In this document: in pieces, positions 5,522-13,869 of the stretch
How positions within the stretch are numbered: the first letter of the stretch is position 1
Layout of the letters: every line of letters starts with the position of its first letter
Source: a virus
Taxonomy: Duplodnaviria; Heunggongvirae; Uroviricota; Caudoviricetes
DNA: 13,869 bases
IMG/VR virus record: IMGVR_UViG_2606217100_000003
Strand: one strand, 5' to 3'
Program-made: the position numbers and the translations under genes
The notes under the pieces: model-generated
Told to the model about the DNA's origin: nothing
What the model saw: the letters and a program-made list of their open reading frames with translations, nothing else
The model's database searches: none

Positions 5522-5736
5522 TATCCACCTCTCGCAGCCTTGCGCTTATCTTCTTTAATCTTGAAATAAAGGTTTGTCAGGTACGTCAGCAGGCCAAATA
5601 CCAGGCTACCCAGCACACCTATTGCTGCCCACTGTGAGGGCGTGACTTTATCGAGCAGCTGTAAAAACCAGTACCCGGCACTACCTGCTGAGGTGCCATA
5701 GGCGACACCCGTTGTTAACTTATCCATGGATTTCAT
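5521..5736 (-). CDS. essD: Class II holin/pinholin (phage 21 S-type) with dual-start motif
   Basis: 71-aa [27 protein letters not shown]... with two TM segments, matching S21 from memory. The MKSM dual start (Met1 antiholin / Met4 holin) is present, with SD gaggtg upstream. Confidence 0.9.
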
Positions 5737-5847
5737 AACCCCACCTCGCAGACAAAGCGGGTGTAAATTGAGGGAATACTACGAAACGTAACAGACTCGG
5801 AGTCAGTGAATAACTCAGGTATTGGGTTATCAGCTAATATCGAGACT

Positions 5848-5880
5848 CAAAAAATGGAAAAACCCGCTCGACGGCGGGTT
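5848..5880 (-). terminator. Intrinsic terminator acting on minus-strand transcripts upstream of the lysis cassette (tR'-like?)
   Basis: Plus strand aacccgc-tcgacg-gcgggtt (7-bp GC-rich stem, 5861-5880). On the minus strand the hairpin is followed by tttccatttttt. It sits about 125 nt upstream of the essD start. Confidence 0.5.
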
Positions 5881-6309
5881 TAAGCTGTGTGACGAAGTAA
5901 CCACTCTTAACAGCATAACCAATTTTTTACGTACGTAAACCACTAAATGATATTTGCGAGAATGCTACCGAGTATTGAAAACACCACTACAAATACATAA
6001 GCAAATCTCAACAAATAACCAACAAATAATTTCCAGCGTTATTTTTAGCCAATTTAAATTGAACCTTCAAATTATAGAGCGCTTATAAATAACAGCCATT
6101 AATATAAATTGGCTAATAGATTTATTTTTATTCAGCCAAGAGCCATGAATAGGATTCGATAGAAAAAAGTTCAGATAAAAATAGAGATCTACTTCACAAA
6201 TTAAACGAGAAACCAAAACTTACATCTTGAAATAATCACATTGATTAGATGAATATTTATCGCGCAGTGACATCATTTTTTAATAATAGTTCAAAAAAAA
6301 GGGCTCACG
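5881..6309. promoter_or_regulatory. AT-rich porin promoter/5' leader region, possibly also carrying a divergent late promoter
   Basis: About 430 bp AT-rich intergenic region upstream of the porin gene. It contains an imperfect 13-bp inverted repeat, gccaatttaaatt (6048-6060) and aatataaattggc (6101-6113). No promoter hexamers were confidently assigned. Confidence 0.3.
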
Positions 6310-7392
6310 ATGAAAAAATTAACAGTGGCAATTTCTGCTGTAGCTGCATCAGTACTGATGGCGATGTCTGCTCAGGCAGCTGAAATTTATAATAAAGACA
6401 GTAACAAGCTGGATCTGTACGGGAAAGTTAATGCTAAGCACTACTTCTCCTCTAATGATGCAGATGATGGTGATACTACTTATGCCCGTCTTGGCTTCAA
6501 AGGTGAAACCCAAATCAACGATCAACTGACTGGTTTCGGTCAGTGGGAATATGAATTCAAAGGCAACCGCGCTGAATCTCAAGGTTCCTCCAAAGATAAA
6601 ACCCGTCTTGCCTTCGCTGGCCTGAAATTCGGTGACTACGGCTCCATCGATTATGGCCGTAACTACGGTGTAGCATACGATATTGGTGCATGGACCGACG
6701 TTCTGCCAGAATTCGGTGGCGATACCTGGACCCAAACAGATGTATTCATGACTGGTCGCACCACAGGTGTTGCAACTTATCGTAACAACGACTTCTTTGG
6801 TCTGGTTGATGGCCTGAACTTTGCAGCTCAGTATCAGGGCAAAAATGACCGAAAAGAAGTAACTGAAGCTAATGGCGATGGTTTCGGTTTCTCAACTACT
6901 TATGAGTATGAAGGATTCGGCGTGGGTGCAACCTATGCTAAATCTGATCGCACTAATAATCAGGTTATCTACGGTAACAACGGTCTGAATGCTTCTGGTC
7001 AAAATGCTGAAGTATGGGCAGCTGGTCTGAAATATGATGCGAACAACATCTATCTGGCCACCACCTATTCTGAAACCCAGAACATGACTGTTTTTGGTAA
7101 TAACCATATTGCCAACAAAGCACAAAACTTCGAAGCTGTTGCACAATATCAGTTCGACTTCGGCCTGCGTCCATCCGTTGCTTACCTGCATTCTAAAGGA
7201 AAAGACTTGGGTGTTTGGGGTGATCAGGACCTGGTTGAATATGTTGATGTAGGTGCAACCTATTACTTCAACAAAAATATGTCCACTTTTGTTGACTACA
7301 AAATCAACCTGATTGATAAGAGCGATTTCACGAAAGCATCTGGCGTTGCTACCGATGATATCGTTGCTGTAGGTATGGTTTACCAGTTCTAA
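6310..7392 (+). CDS. nmpC: Outer-membrane general porin, OmpC family (prophage NmpC/Lc-type), apparently intact
   Basis: 360-aa ORF with signal peptide [23 protein letters not shown], then [17 protein letters not shown]... and a C-terminal ...VGMVYQF ending in the terminal Phe typical of porins. It resembles OmpC throughout and is not interrupted by an insertion sequence. Confidence 0.9.
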
Positions 7393-7556
7393 TTTGATTA
7401 CTAAAAGATATGTTGTGGGAGACTTTGCCTCCCCAACATATAAGTGGCTCCCTCAAGCCACTTCCTTTAGAAGCACAACCTTGCTTCTAACTATACAAAC
7501 CTTCTGTTATATATTACCCTTTATTTTTGGGGGCGTTTCAACGCCCCATTTTTAAT
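7393..7556 (+). ncRNA. ipeX: Structured porin 3'UTR, candidate IpeX-like regulatory RNA
   Basis: About 164 nt between the porin stop and its terminator contains three further hairpins: 7409-7441 (atatgttgtgggag/ctccccaacatat), 7442-7463 (aagtggc/gccactt) and 7469-7488 (agaagca/tgcttct). IpeX was described in the nmpC 3'UTR of DLP12/PA-2 (from memory); identity was not verified. Confidence 0.45.
7529..7556 (+). terminator. Intrinsic terminator of the porin transcript
   Basis: gggggcgtt-tc-aacgcccc hairpin (8-bp GC-rich stem) followed by atttttaat. Confidence 0.6.
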
Positions 7557-7580
7557 AACTTTTAGTAAATAATTGGCGTA

Positions 7581-7964
7581 TTAATTAGAGTTATTAACAA
7601 CGATATCCATCTCTAACCGGATATCTAATGCCATTAACATCCCTTCAATTATGCCCTCAGCCTTTTGTAACCTTTTCCCGATATAACCATCAGAGCAGCA
7701 ATGCTTACCTGCCAGTGACATGAATGTCATACCGACTACATAATAATCTACTAATAAATCGTGCAAATCGCTGTTGTTCTTTTTCAGACGGGCCATGCAC
7801 CCGCAAATGATCATCGCGTCATCGTCACAACATTGCGGGCGAGATTTTACTTTTGAAGGAATTAATCCCTTAAAACCGGCGGCAATGGACGACCAGGTCA
7901 CATCTTCATGATTATTAGCCGCCCACGCTCCCCAACGCTCAAGAACCATCTGAATATCACGCAT
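7581..7964 (-). CDS. quuD: Late-gene antiterminator Q (phage 21/82-type)
   Basis: The track ORF 7581..7979 begins with TTG; ATG at 7964 gives 127 aa, [24 protein letters not shown]..., matching my memory of K-12 QuuD, with cysteine-rich segments (CCDDD, CGC, HCC). Confidence 0.85.
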
Positions 7965-10129: not shown

Positions 10130-10747
10130 TTAAAAAAGCGATAAGCTTTGCCCCGAATTCATCGGTAGTGGAGAGAAAGTAACATCACGTATTTGCTCCC
10201 CGAGCAGAAGAAACCTATCCAAGGGTAGCGGCGGTATCGTAGCAAACCCTGAAAGCCCCTTCTTTCTTGCAACATCTCTCGCATCCATAAGGATACGACC
10301 TAACACGTTCATACCATAAAAGTTACCTTCGGAGTCTTTACTAGCCCCCCAAAATTGGTCCTTCTCTGAGTGCTCAACAATGTCATGCTCTCCTGTGCTA
10401 TCCAGGAGCGCGAAAAACGATTCCCAGTTCTGGCAAAGCTTAACGCAGACACACCATTTCATTACCGAAACTCGATTTTTTTCCCAACCTGCACGGGTTT
10501 TAGCTTCGAAAGATCTGGCGGTTTGTTTAGCTTCATAAGGGTTGCCTTGGGTAATAATAGCCTTTTGGATATCTGGATAGTCTGGATATCGGCATGCTTG
10601 GTAAAGAATTTCACTCGATTGAATGGGTATACCATTAACTAAGAGCGGATATCCTTTGGCCATGTTGGAAAGACCACCCCATTTCTCGGTGGTTTTCCTG
10701 AAAGAAACTGTGTTGTGAAACAGGTATAGTCTATAGCTCATGATCAC
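10130..10747 (-). CDS. NADAR-domain protein (YbiA-like, DUF1768; predicted ADP-ribosyl/N-glycoside hydrolase)
   Basis: About 203-205 aa (GTG at 10747 or ATG at 10741 with SD ggtga). Three segments match E. coli YbiA as I recall it. GGLSNMAKGYPLLVNGIPIQSSEILYQACRY matches GDFSNFAAWPIKVDGKTWPTSEHYFQAQKF. WEKNRVSVMKW matches WESVKEQVMRK. IVEHSEKDQFWGA...NVLGRILMDAR matches LVEHTENDAYWGD...NRLGYLLMELR. Confidence 0.75.
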   Translation of the reverse strand: MIMSYRLYLFHNTVSFRKTTEKWGGLSNMAKGYPLLVNGIPIQSSEILYQACRYPDYPDIQKAIITQGNPYEAKQTARSFEAKTRAGWEKNRVSVMKWCVCVKLCQNWESFFALLDSTGEHDIVEHSEKDQFWGASKDSEGNFYGMNVLGRILMDARDVARKKGLSGFATIPPLPLDRFLLLGEQIRDVTFSPLPMNSGQSLSLF

Positions 10748-11763
10748 CGATTATACACATTACGCTTCATAAGTGGATACCAACAATCCAGAGCTCTATT
10801 TCCCGTTCGAAGATAAGTTCCCCACCAGTACGCTAGAGGGGTATTATTGGGGCAGTTTCTGAAAGTAAAGATAGTTCCACCAAACCCAACACCATTGAAA
10901 GTTGAAAAGCCTAAAGGCTTTATAGCATCAGAAGGATTTTGACTCTGACCAAGGATATCAAACCCAACTTTTGTCATAATTGCTTCAAAACGATCTCGTC
11001 TCTGCTCATTAGGGAAAAAATTATTCGCGACGTAACCGTCACGATATGTTCCTAAATAATGTACTTGACCGTCAGCCCATTCAGGTATTGATACACTTTG
11101 CGCTTTTGGCCAAAAAACCTCAGAACTCGAACTGTTTCGGCGTTGATTTTCAACAACTGCAAACTCACCACCATCAACGCAAACTGAAATATTCCTATCA
11201 GCAAATTTTCGTTCAAGTTGTTTTTTTATATTCCATGCTGAATACGTGTGCCCGCCTAAAAAGTACACCAATATTGTAATATTTTGGAGTTCAAAGTGCT
11301 CAATAAACCAAGTTAAATCATTGATTGCCTTAGCTCCTGAGAATGAAACATCGTCAAGGTAAATAAATTCACGGAATGAACTAACTCTTTGACGTTGTGA
11401 CAGTCTGGTCACAACGTTGAATTCTTCTACACAATCTTCGCGAAGCAAATCCAAAAACTCAGATTGACTGGTGCCTTGGTTCTGGATATCGAGAAACGCT
11501 GCGGTTTGAAAGAACCTTTCATTTTGCTCATCATTGGCGATACTACTAATAACTCTGCGATAGTCGCTCTCAGAGAAGTATCCAATCCCCATTAATCGGT
11601 CCGTTTCCTCTAAGACAAATCGCCTATCGGTTAACTCAAATTGATTAATCCATCGATTAACATGATCAATGCTCATGCCACCTTGAGGAGGGTTTCGATA
11701 GTCATTTAATTTAGTAGCAATTTGCCCCATAAGATCACGATCTGTAACATTGCTATAACACAT
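10744..11763 (-). CDS. Uncharacterised 339-aa protein with weak phosphoribosyltransferase-like motif; first gene of the NADAR operon
   Basis: ATG at 11763 with SD agga; its stop TGA (10746-10744) overlaps or abuts the NADAR start. The central FIYLDDVSFSGAKA loosely fits the type-I PRTase PRPP-binding signature (hydrophobic x4, DD, small residues, G). No other family was recognised. The gene is low in GC. Confidence 0.7.
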   Translation of the reverse strand: MCYSNVTDRDLMGQIATKLNDYRNPPQGGMSIDHVNRWINQFELTDRRFVLEETDRLMGIGYFSESDYRRVISSIANDEQNERFFQTAAFLDIQNQGTSQSEFLDLLREDCVEEFNVVTRLSQRQRVSSFREFIYLDDVSFSGAKAINDLTWFIEHFELQNITILVYFLGGHTYSAWNIKKQLERKFADRNISVCVDGGEFAVVENQRRNSSSSEVFWPKAQSVSIPEWADGQVHYLGTYRDGYVANNFFPNEQRRDRFEAIMTKVGFDILGQSQNPSDAIKPLGFSTFNGVGFGGTIFTFRNCPNNTPLAYWWGTYLRTGNRALDCWYPLMKRNVYNR

Positions 11764-12705: not shown

Positions 12706-13869
12706 ATGTCACTCTTCCGCAGAAATGAAATATGGTATGCCTCGTATTCGCTCCCGGGCGGGAAACGAATTAAGGAATCTCTTGGCACAAAGGACAAGCG
12801 GCAAGCTCAGGAGTTGCACGACAAGCGAAAAGCAGAACTCTGGCGAGTAGAAAAGCTAGGGGATTTACCTGATGTCACTTTTGAAGAGGCCTGCCTAAGA
12901 TGGCTTGAGGAAAAAGCTGATAAAAAATCTCTCGATTCAGATAAAAGCCGGATTGAGTTCTGGCTTGAACATTTTGAGGGTATAAGGCTTAAAGATATCT
13001 CGGAGGCAAAGATTTACTCTGCTGTAAGCAGAATGCATAACAGAAAGACGAAAGAAATATGGAAACAGAAAGTTCAGGCCGCCATCAGGAAAGGTAAAGA
13101 ACTGCCTGTTTATGAACCAAAGCCAGTATCAACTCAGACAAAGGCAAAGCATCTTGCCATGATAAAGGCCATTCTCCGTGCTGCAGAACGCGACTGGAAG
13201 TGGCTGGAAAAAGCGCCTGTCATCAAGATACCAGCGGTCAGAAACAAGCGAGTCAGATGGCTGGAAAAGGAGGAAGCAAAACGCCTTATTGATGAGTGCC
13301 CCGAACCACTGAAATCTGTCGTCAAGTTTGCGCTGGCAACTGGTCTGAGAAAGTCGAACATCATAAATCTGGAATGGCAACAAATCGACATGCAGCGACG
13401 AGTTGCCTGGGTGAATCCAGAAGAGAGCAAATCAAACCGCGCCATTGGTGTGGCGCTGAACGATACCGCCTGTAAAGTGTTGCGTGATCAAATAGGCAAG
13501 CATCACAAATGGGTGTTTGTACATACCAAGGCGGCTAAGCGAGCAGATGGAACATCAACGCCTGCGGTCAGGAAGATGCGCATCGACAGCAAGACATCAT
13601 GGCTATCAGCTTGTCGTCGTGCAGGAATTGAAGATTTCCGTTTCCATGACCTCAGACACACCTGGGCAAGCTGGCTGATTCAGTCAGGCGTCCCATTATC
13701 AGTGCTTCAGGAAATGGGCGGATGGGAGTCCATAGAAATGGTTCGTAGGTATGCTCACCTTGCGCCTAATCATTTGACAGAGCATGCGAGGAAAATAGAC
13801 GACATTTTTGGTGATAATGTCCCAAATATGTCCCACTCTGGAATTATGGAGGATATAAAGAAGGCGTAA
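12706..13869 (+). CDS. intD: Prophage tyrosine integrase
   Basis: 387-aa ORF with SD gaggaaag. Tyrosine-recombinase motifs are present: TGLRKSN (box I Arg), HDLRHTWAS (His-x-x-Arg) and VRRYAHL (catalytic Tyr). It matches my memory of DLP12 IntD; argU and the att site should lie just beyond the window end. Confidence 0.9.

Follow-up and report, generated by a model that had tools for sequence, protein, structure and literature searches.

The locus analysed here raises the question of how the lysis genes of a lambdoid prophage are transcribed when a porin gene in reverse orientation separates them from the gene for the late antiterminator Q, and when a minus-strand hairpin with the appearance of a terminator stands in front of the holin gene. 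The window, by which we mean the whole stretch of 13,869 nucleotides that was analysed, represents a defective lambdoid prophage of DLP12 type from E. coli, in which the late direction is the minus strand. A preliminary description of this DNA had assumed the identities of Q, the reverse porin, holin, lysozyme and Rz, all of which Pfam matches show to be right. It had also left two routes for late transcription, one from a pR′/tR′ pair lying away from Q in the interval 5881-6309 and one running antisense through the porin gene, and had judged the expression of the lysis cassette to be unclear and possibly insulated. As argued below, the first of these routes stands, while the antisense route and the insulated cassette find no support.

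The features on which the argument depends are collected in Table 1. The window also encodes a truncated replication protein P, a PRTase-CE and NADAR pair, and a NinB-like gene, YbcO and RusA of the nin region; its late side contains Nu1, a terminase gpA that is truncated and fused to a tail-fibre-assembly fragment, and an AraC-type regulator. The early-region cargo (PRTase-CE and NADAR) differs from that of K-12 DLP12. The late genes on the same strand past pR′ are holin, endolysin and Rz, followed by Nu1 and the truncated gpA, and the annotation of the lysis cassette agrees with that of phage 434B.

Table 1. Coordinates of the features discussed, ordered along the late (minus) strand
Feature	Position	Strand	Details
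Integrase	12706-13869	+	
Late antiterminator Q (quuD-like, 127 aa)	7964-7581	minus	PF06530, 9.7e-54; core ends ...LEMD at ~7605
Convergent gap between Q stop and porin stop	7393-7580	.	Strong-hairpin cluster
Porin terminator	7530-7547	+	Consensus scan
Hairpin with weak T tail (then CTTTTAG)	7443-7410	minus	Inside the Q-porin gap
NmpC/Lc-type porin, intact, 360 aa, reverse-oriented cargo	6310-7392	+	Porin_1, 3e-152
Sigma-E-type promoter	6293-6260	minus	TGAACTA (6293-6287), 16-nt spacer, TCACT (6270-6266), putative start ~6260
Late promoter pR′	5939-5912	minus	-35 TTTACG (5939-5934), 16-nt spacer, -10 TATGCT (5917-5912); by homology
Palindrome	5938-5927	minus	TTACGTACGTAA, then A run (to 5923); overlaps -35; candidate Q-binding element
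Start-site block	5889-5909	minus	TAAGAGTGGTTACTTCGTCAC; would span the start site (~5908-5905) and the early transcribed region
Candidate sigma-dependent pause element	5908-5901	minus	AAGAGT + GG; key A at position 2, T at position 6
Intrinsic terminator tR′	5881-5850	minus	Stem 5881-5874 / 5867-5860, loop CGTCGA, T-rich tail to ~5850
essD, P21-type holin, dual start MKSM	5736-5521	minus	Phage_holin_2_1
rrrD, endolysin/lysozyme	5521-5024	minus	Phage_lysozyme
rzpD, Rz	5039-4560	minus	Phage_lysis
rzoD, embedded in rzpD	within ORF 4807-4601	minus	

The late promoter and the expression route of the lysis cassette

When the interval 5737-6309 was compared with phage records by a sensitive BLAST, the matches fell into two classes. 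In the first, 36 records from phages that share the Q-porin-holin module span the whole interval; the second comprises about 280 records, mostly of Stx phages, that match only query positions 370-452, corresponding to window 5940-5858. On the minus strand this short segment is 77-78% identical over 83 nt to the annotated pR′-qut-tR′ region of 933W and VT1-Sakai, and 90% identical to SfII. The pR′ annotated in 933W and VT1-Sakai (NC_000924, AP000400) is TTTACG-N16-TATCAT, and it aligns with the pR′ of the window, which lies approximately 25 nt upstream of the tR′ hairpin. This homology places pR′ at 5939-5912 and tR′ at 5881-5860, in the interval distant from Q. The hexamers of pR′ are weak, agreeing with the consensus at 8 of 12 positions, so that the promoter went unflagged at the scan threshold of 9; the consensus promoter scan yields fewer sites than it does in shuffled sequences and is therefore uninformative either way on pR′.

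The position of the start site is suggested by the Stx phages of Sakai, in which dRNA-seq and Term-seq located the pR′ start and the transcript 3′ end, respectively, at a distance of 258 nt from each other (Sy et al., PMC7547250). Counted back from the second annotated terminator, the Sakai start falls 4-7 nt past TATCAT, inside TAAGAG, and by correspondence transcription in the window would start at about 5908-5905. Placing the Sakai start by genome coordinate was tried and dropped: position 1,266,203 of NC_002695.2 lands inside Q, so the paper evidently refers to another sequence version, and the 258-nt distance was used instead. The first 13 nt of the start-site block form a core, TAAGAGTGGTTAC, that is invariant in four other aligned phages, which were found by BLAST independently of any pattern. 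We propose that this conserved block is the part of the unit that deals with polymerase and sigma. Its candidate pause element, AAGAGT + GG followed by TTACTTCG, resembles the pause element of lambda, AACGAT + GGG followed by TTAATTCG, and the early transcribed sequence AAGAGTGGTTACTTCG of the window is similar to AACGATGGGTTAATTCG of lambda. The qut annotated in 933W (ACATTGCC) was also considered as the pause element; its counterpart in the window, TACTTC, lacks the key final T, and AAGAGT is preferred on this ground, as a preference only.

We consider it very probable that the lysis cassette is under the control of a canonical Q/pR′/tR′ unit, with pR′ directly upstream of the cassette and the porin gene as cargo between Q and pR′. 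Host sigma-70 RNA polymerase would initiate at about 5908-5905 and, without Q, would halt at the tR′ hairpin after approximately 50 nt, leaving the lysis genes nearly silent. Q, made from 7964-7581, would diffuse to pR′ and bind it at a specific element, which is probably the palindrome that overlaps the -35; it would then load onto polymerase paused just past the start, probably at AAGAGT-GG. The polymerase so modified would then pass tR′ into essD-rrrD-rzpD/rzoD and beyond. For the present strain we infer the sigma-70 promoter activity of pR′, the exact start, the pause site, the Q-binding element and the Q-dependent read-through from the sequence and its relatives. Because Q is diffusible and acts in trans, the distance from Q to pR′ is immaterial, and their adjacency is customary rather than a mechanistic need. 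When a resident prophage is induced, plasmid reporters with an AP000400-type pR′ respond, which indicates that Q works in trans (PMC6266700).

A first argument that this route is functional comes from phage 434B, a plaque-forming derivative of 434 that carries the K-12 DLP12 segment (PMC9119081). Its pR′-tR′ is the same as that of the window, base for base, and all of its late genes depend on that unit. Thirty-six deposited phage records, among them ev243, PhiR70_1 and mEp332, contain the same 2.5-kb module with 91-99% identity. Of 5426 complete E. coli genomes, 2356 have the intergenic region, and the module is thus present in almost half. Since the K-12 pR′-tR′ serves a viable phage and the region is so widespread, the route appears to be canonical. 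The idea of an unclear, possibly insulated cassette is accordingly not sustained: Q, pR′ and tR′ are intact, the unit adjoins the cassette, and the same module serves viable phages. In PMC7918800, Q-type antiterminator control of the DLP12 lysis operon is cited as established, and the Q-controlled route is already known in substance from published work on DLP12, on 434B and on Stx phages. Counting against the Q route is the fact that the prophage is defective.

The comparison set consisted of phage 21, lambda, 933W, SfII, PhiR40_1 and 1720a-02. Among the closest known systems are the Stx phages 933W, Sp5 and VT1-Sakai, which have a homologous Q, promoter, start region and first hairpin, with the elements spaced as in the window (PMC7547250; PMC6266700). 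In these phages pR′ overlaps the 3′ end of Q, the -35 of 933W lying over the last Q codons, whereas in the window 1.66 kb of reverse cargo comes first. Furthermore, the Stx phages possess a second terminator 258 nt downstream, which is the source of StxS, followed by tRNA genes and stx, whereas the window has a single terminator, with no second one between tR′ and essD, and the holin gene follows after 124 nt. An RNA of the StxS type would require a 258-nt pR′ transcript that ends at a second terminator, with a 74-nt 3′ fragment (PMC7547250). A small RNA of this type was not recognized in the window, where the match to 933W stops at the first hairpin, and Rfam gave no match for a StxS-type pR′ leader RNA.

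Comparison with phage 21, which the preliminary description had recommended, revealed the same compact layout from pR′ to terminator as is annotated there. Phage 21 shares with the window a PF06530 Q, a terminated leader of approximately 50 nt and a downstream cassette of P21-type pinholin, SAR endolysin and spanin. Its annotation (OL657228) places the Q-binding element (QBE) between -35 and -10, a sigma-dependent pause element (SDPE) at +2 and the end of the terminator at +50 (PMC6606751; 10.1101/651190). However, the pR′ of phage 21 directly follows Q and that of the window does not, and the two Q proteins are 30% identical. The pR′-6S RNA-tR′ unit of lambda follows the same logic of constitutive promoter, sigma-dependent pause, terminator and Q-dependent read-through, although lambda Q belongs to an unrelated family (PF03589) and the lambda leader is 194 nt long. 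K-12 DLP12 (qsr′) and 434B share the gene order of the window and are 99% identical to it over the whole 681-nt interval, which covers the stretch between the porin start and essD, with complete identity from 5956 down to essD. In K-12 nmpC is split by IS5, so that pR′ lies 2.9 kb from Q, as it also does in 434B, whereas the porin of the window is intact.

In a domesticated prophage the cassette might instead be expressed mainly from the sigma-E-type promoter further upstream, with the hairpin as a host-side attenuator and Q in a minor role. PMC7918800 cites RpoE control and describes amplification of a DLP12 lysis 'regulatory region' from -121 to +650, in the numbering of an RpoE study (Rueggeberg et al. 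2015). The primers used lie at positions 6382 and 5611 of the window; as K-12 is one T shorter than the window in the sigma-E promoter stretch, +1 was adjusted accordingly, to about 6260, where it is preceded by TGAACTA-N16-TCACT, a good match to a promoter of sigma-E type. Judging from these primer positions, 6260 is likely the published RpoE-dependent start of the DLP12 lysis operon. Moreover, NEB 5-alpha retains pR′-tR′-essD and has lost Q. Nevertheless, the start near 6260 is itself a deduction, transcripts from it would have a 525-nt leader and would have to cross pR′ and face tR′ as well, and the known way of loading Q, which depends on a sigma-70 pause at pR′, would be closed to them. 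Both Q and the pR′ unit are intact, and Q control of DLP12 is also cited in PMC7918800. Predominance of the sigma-E promoter is thus unlikely; being compatible with the Q route, the sigma-E route complements it and is no substitute for it. As to direct RNA-end evidence in K-12, the available supplements of PMC7815308 contain no entries for essD, nmpC or quuD.

The Q gene and the reverse-oriented porin

The Q protein of the window shares 79% identity with its 933W counterpart across 126 residues, which argues that the protein and its target site are homologous together; it is 30% identical to Q21 and matched the Q21 structures 6JNX and 6P18 at 7e-8. When four Q genes (window, 933W, PhiR40_1 and 1720a-02) are compared, their DNA homology stops after GAGATGGA, which encodes ...LEMD, and past this point each of the four Q lineages has its own short tail. 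On the other side, promoter homology with relatives starts at about 5940. Because Q homology ends at approximately 7605 and pR′ homology begins at approximately 5940, the 1.66 kb from 5941 to 7604 are an inserted or replaced segment. This stretch contains the porin gene, its 370-bp upstream region, the porin terminator and a run of strong hairpins; no + strand promoter was found in 5941-6309 at the scan threshold.

Consequently, 1642 nt separate the -35 of pR′ from the Q stop, compared to 5-40 nt in 933W, 1720a-02 and others, and the window lacks the usual adjacency of the two. Among 80 IMG/VR loci with a window-type Q, 79 have the reverse porin between Q and the pR′ core, while in the remaining locus the pR′ core was not found. 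Thus, every locus with a pR′ core and a window-type Q carries the reverse porin, and its pR′ core is located 1.67-1.69 kb from Q. The porin gene resembles a moron: 933W and 1720a-02 lack it, SfII, PhiR40_1 and others have different genes in its place, and it is equipped with its own terminator. Known phage morons, which are independently expressed cargo such as bor, lom and the lc porin of PA-2, likewise have their own terminator and upstream region and are variably present in syntenic phages. Unlike them, the porin of the window is found outside the late operon, between Q and pR′ and on the opposite strand. It is cargo outside the late transcription unit, and leaves that unit uninterrupted.

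These findings bear directly on the second route left by the preliminary description, in which the late promoter would lie beside Q in 7393-7580, late transcripts would run antisense through the porin, and the hairpin before essD would be an extra terminator ignored by the Q-modified polymerase. Such a placement agrees with the textbook cassette, which has pR′ right after Q (10.1101/651190; annotations of 933W and phage 21), and some read-through of the early operon past Q is plausible. However, the consensus scan shows no minus-strand promoter-like site in the Q-porin gap, neither the pR′ core nor the palindrome recurs there, and the gap is filled with hairpins (fold -68.9 kcal/mol, z = -6.4). 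The homologue of the 933W pR′ is found at 5939-5912, and other cargo-bearing Q subtypes have their Q-specific palindrome after the cargo rather than beside Q. We therefore regard a Q-adjacent late promoter as highly improbable and the antisense route as unsupported. Early-operon transcripts may read past Q into the antisense strand of the porin, and the minus-strand hairpin in the gap might limit such read-through.

The terminator upstream of essD

The preliminary description had reported a minus-strand intrinsic terminator about 125 nt before essD, and our analysis confirmed it at 5881-5860, with a hairpin folding energy of -11.5 kcal/mol (ViennaRNA) and 124 nt from the hairpin end to the essD ATG (5736). 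In the consensus scan of the window the site reads AAACCCGCCGTCGAGCGGGTTT followed by the tail TTCCATTTTT; the stem arms, AAACCCGC and GCGGGTTT, form 8 pairs (5 of them G-C) around a 6-nt loop. The hairpin has no T tail on the + strand, and the terminator is therefore unidirectional. A pattern of this kind is expected by chance: the window has 16 terminator-like sites compared to 12.7 +/- 3.7 in shuffled sequences, and the 63-nt leader folds with z = -1.55. Hence, the case for tR′ must be made from conservation and related sequences.

Three comparisons supply that case. The hairpin is the same in K-12 DLP12, base for base, and in 933W and VT1-Sakai the sequence aligned with it is annotated as the terminator that follows pR′. 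As a third comparison, a pattern search with the core and conserved downstream positions (TAAGAGTGGTTACNTNGNCAC) returned 120 IMG/VR stretches, which together with phage loci gave 74 distinct 135-nt segments around the core and 64 distinct leader variants. Because all variants were retrieved by the pattern, its fixed positions are constant by construction and only the N positions are informative; for the same reason, conservation of the core is judged from the independent alignment of the four phages found by BLAST. A hairpin with a T-rich tail is kept at this place in 50 of the 64 leader variants, and the retained hairpins use unrelated stems, e.g. CCTCGC/GCGGGG and CCCTGCC/GGCGGGG. Conservation was measured as the presence of hairpin plus tail in each variant, instead of by a covariation test on pair counts, since close relatives are too invariant and distant ones have the whole hairpin replaced. 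A fortuitous terminator-like sequence without function, which the count of sites and the modest leader z score would allow, is barely credible as an account of the hairpin given its alignment with the annotated terminators of 933W and VT1-Sakai and its retention with unrelated stems in 50 of 64 variants.

Judged by these relatives, the 5881-5860 hairpin is the Q-controlled late terminator tR′ of a lambdoid prophage of the DLP12/933W type. Rfam returned no family at threshold for the pR′ leader, and a sub-threshold match to Trp_leader merely reflects the terminator. From the deduced start to tR′, the terminated leader is predicted to be approximately 48-54 nt long. In Sakai the 3′ end was mapped at the second terminator, suggesting that the first hairpin is leaky or that a product of approximately 50 nt escaped detection. 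A leaky tR′ would give basal expression of the lysis genes, which would agree with the physiological roles that have been reported for the cassette of DLP12 (PMC7918800). Terminator strength also varies among DLP12-type copies: approximately half of those in IMG/VR carry a G-to-T change in the 3′ arm (GCTGG for GCGGG), which gives a stem of about -5 to -6 kcal/mol compared to -11.5 kcal/mol for the strong GCGGG version present in the window.

The palindrome over the -35, Q subtypes and the gap between Q and pR′

The palindrome TTACGTACGTAA occurs once in the window. Among the retrieved variants the early transcribed block reads G(T/A/C)TAAGAGTGGTTAC(T/A)T(C/T/A)G(C/T)CAC, with two or three bases at each free position, and the -10 appears as TATGCT, TATCAT, TATCGT, TAATCT, TACTGT or CAGTAT. 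The palindrome over the -35 and its A run differ in sequence from lineage to lineage, and the symmetry is kept. When the loci were sorted by the Q gene upstream, the palindrome was seen to go with the helix-turn-helix subtype of Q, of which there are about seven. Subtype A (the window, 933W and PhiR40_1) has TTAC(G/A)NNCGTAA, subtype B (SfII-like) ACGCGTACGC, subtype C (1720a-like) GCGGTCCGC, subtype D ATTCGTTACGAAT, subtype E TGGAATTCCA and subtype F TGTTATAACA; a single locus, L159 (label G), has a B-like Q together with a B-like palindrome, ACGCGCACGC. Inside one subtype the palindrome is invariant and both flanks are variable. In Q itself the N-terminal half is conserved in all subtypes, and the differences concentrate at residues ~62-102, the predicted helix-turn-helix.

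Two natural recombinants bear on this association. One (L099) combines a type-A N-terminal half with a different helix-turn-helix and a different palindrome, and in the other (L097) a leader and terminator of DLP12 type are joined to a type-B palindrome, with a type-B Q at a distance of 2.4 kb from it. Both disfavour mere linkage of the palindrome and Q. Based on this co-variation and on the recombinants, we propose that the palindrome is the candidate Q-binding element. It would differ from that of Q21, which is a direct repeat (ATTGAGCA / AATGAGCA) between the -35 and -10 rather than a palindrome over the -35.

Because Q would find pR′ through such an element at any distance, the gap between them may have become a landing site for cargo. 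Relatives fall into two groups by the spacing of the Q stop and the pR′ core, which is 5-40 nt in one and 0.6-2.9 kb in the other. Over 20 different gene sets occur in the longer gaps, nearly all on the opposite strand and two of them forward, including porins, lipoproteins, Kiwa, a PifA-like NTPase, an HNH effector and many unknown gene pairs. Many alternative cargoes thus occupy this recurrent site, which lies just outside the late operon, and the porin is one of them; cargo so placed may be expressed from the prophage. The combined proposal, that the Q-binding element of the Q933W/DLP12 branch is a short palindrome over the -35 and that antisense cargo has come to use the Q-pR′ gap as a dedicated landing site, is one in which our confidence is evenly balanced. 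If it is true, a sequence rule that ties the promoter element to the Q subtype would make it possible to predict which late operons a given prophage Q can cross-activate, a matter relevant to Shiga toxin output in strains with multiple prophages.

For the present window the consequences are small, as a standard Q switch with a bystander porin insertion was implied by prior literature; the practical value lies in a precise annotation of pR′, start site, tR′ and cargo boundaries, which are unannotated in public records. The wider interest is in the gap as a place to look for new defence genes. A literature search for a described defence hotspot between Q and pR′ of lambdoid phages returned nothing specific. 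Ten cargo proteins were scanned with PADLOC, which gave no match for seven; among the others it recognized KwaB with a membrane partner (Kiwa, 2e-150), a PDC-S20/PifA-like KAP NTPase (1e-177) and an HNH effector.

The late promoter and its terminator

The late promoter pR' carries a short palindrome that overlaps its -35 element. Over the window and comparison loci L002, L005-L007 and L092-L207, the sequence of this palindrome shifts together with the subtype of the late antiterminator Q, in six to seven pairs, and no variation of the palindrome is found inside any one Q subtype; the subtypes themselves differ in a predicted helix-turn-helix segment. As judged from sequence, the palindrome is a candidate Q-binding element, and it would be unlike that of Q21, the phage 21 antiterminator, which is a direct repeat.

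The intrinsic terminator tR' exists in two forms. The window possesses the strong form (GCGGG), while about half of the DLP12-type copies (e.g. L009, L011 and L014) show a G-to-T change in the 3' arm of the minus-strand stem (GCTGG; window position 5863), which destabilises the hairpin (about -5 to -6 kcal/mol, against -11.5 in the strong form) and gives rise to an alternative CAGCT/AGCTG pairing.

Features located in the window
Feature	Position	Strand	Remarks
Fused ORF: terminase gpA N-terminal ATPase domain and C-terminal part of tail-fibre-assembly protein	1371-2459	minus	single ORF
essD dual start MKSM (antiholin and holin)	5725-5736	minus	
Small stem CACC-CGC / GCG-A-GGTG	5737-5765	minus	over essD ribosome-binding site
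Short palindrome	5927-5938	minus	overlaps pR' -35
Sigma-E-type promoter TGAACTA-N16-TCACT	6260-6293	minus	just within porin-proximal end of intergenic region
Hairpin with weak T tail	7443-7410	minus	in gap 7393-7580
Porin terminator	7530-7547	plus	one hairpin of gap 7393-7580
PRTase-CE (339 aa) and NADAR (205 aa) gene pair	10130-11763	minus	early region

A probable second promoter and the essD start

The sigma-E-type promoter falls where PMC7918800, through its '-121 to +650' amplicon, places +1, and by that numbering it is probably the site from which the DLP12 lysis operon starts under RpoE control. Transcripts from it would have a leader of 525 nt containing both pR' and tR'. The dual start of the holin gene essD has the same arrangement as in the phage 21 holin S21, and the stem over its ribosome-binding site is reminiscent of the lambda S start-choice structure.

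Cargo between Q and pR'

In the Q family of the window, the gap between the end of the Q core (...LEMD) and pR' is a recurrent cargo site (window 5941-7604; loci L005, L006 and L095-L207), where the inserted genes nearly always lie in reverse orientation. They include porins, lipoproteins and Kiwa (KwaB and partner), together with a PifA-like KAP NTPase (PDC-S20), an HNH effector and numerous unknown gene pairs that have membrane partners. The 188 nt that separate Q from the convergent porin gene are filled by four to five strong hairpins (z = -6.4), of which the minus-strand hairpin might limit read-through from Q.

In E. coli NEB 5-alpha, of the DH5alpha lineage (L008; NZ_CP017100 471250-472508), an IS5 adjoins the sequence 6 nt ahead of the pR' -35. 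This strain has lost the stretch that runs from the integrase to nmpC and includes Q, but retains pR'-tR'-essD-rrrD-rzpD.

Terminase fusion and early gene pair

The gpA/tail-fibre-assembly fusion is a deletion join, at which the head and tail genes were lost, and the prophage is therefore defective. In the early region, the PRTase-CE and NADAR genes hold the place that emrE and ybcK-M take in K-12 DLP12. Both gave weak PADLOC matches (PRTase_III-A, 5e-10; PDC-M42C, 4e-8), and the pair may form a defence or toxin module.
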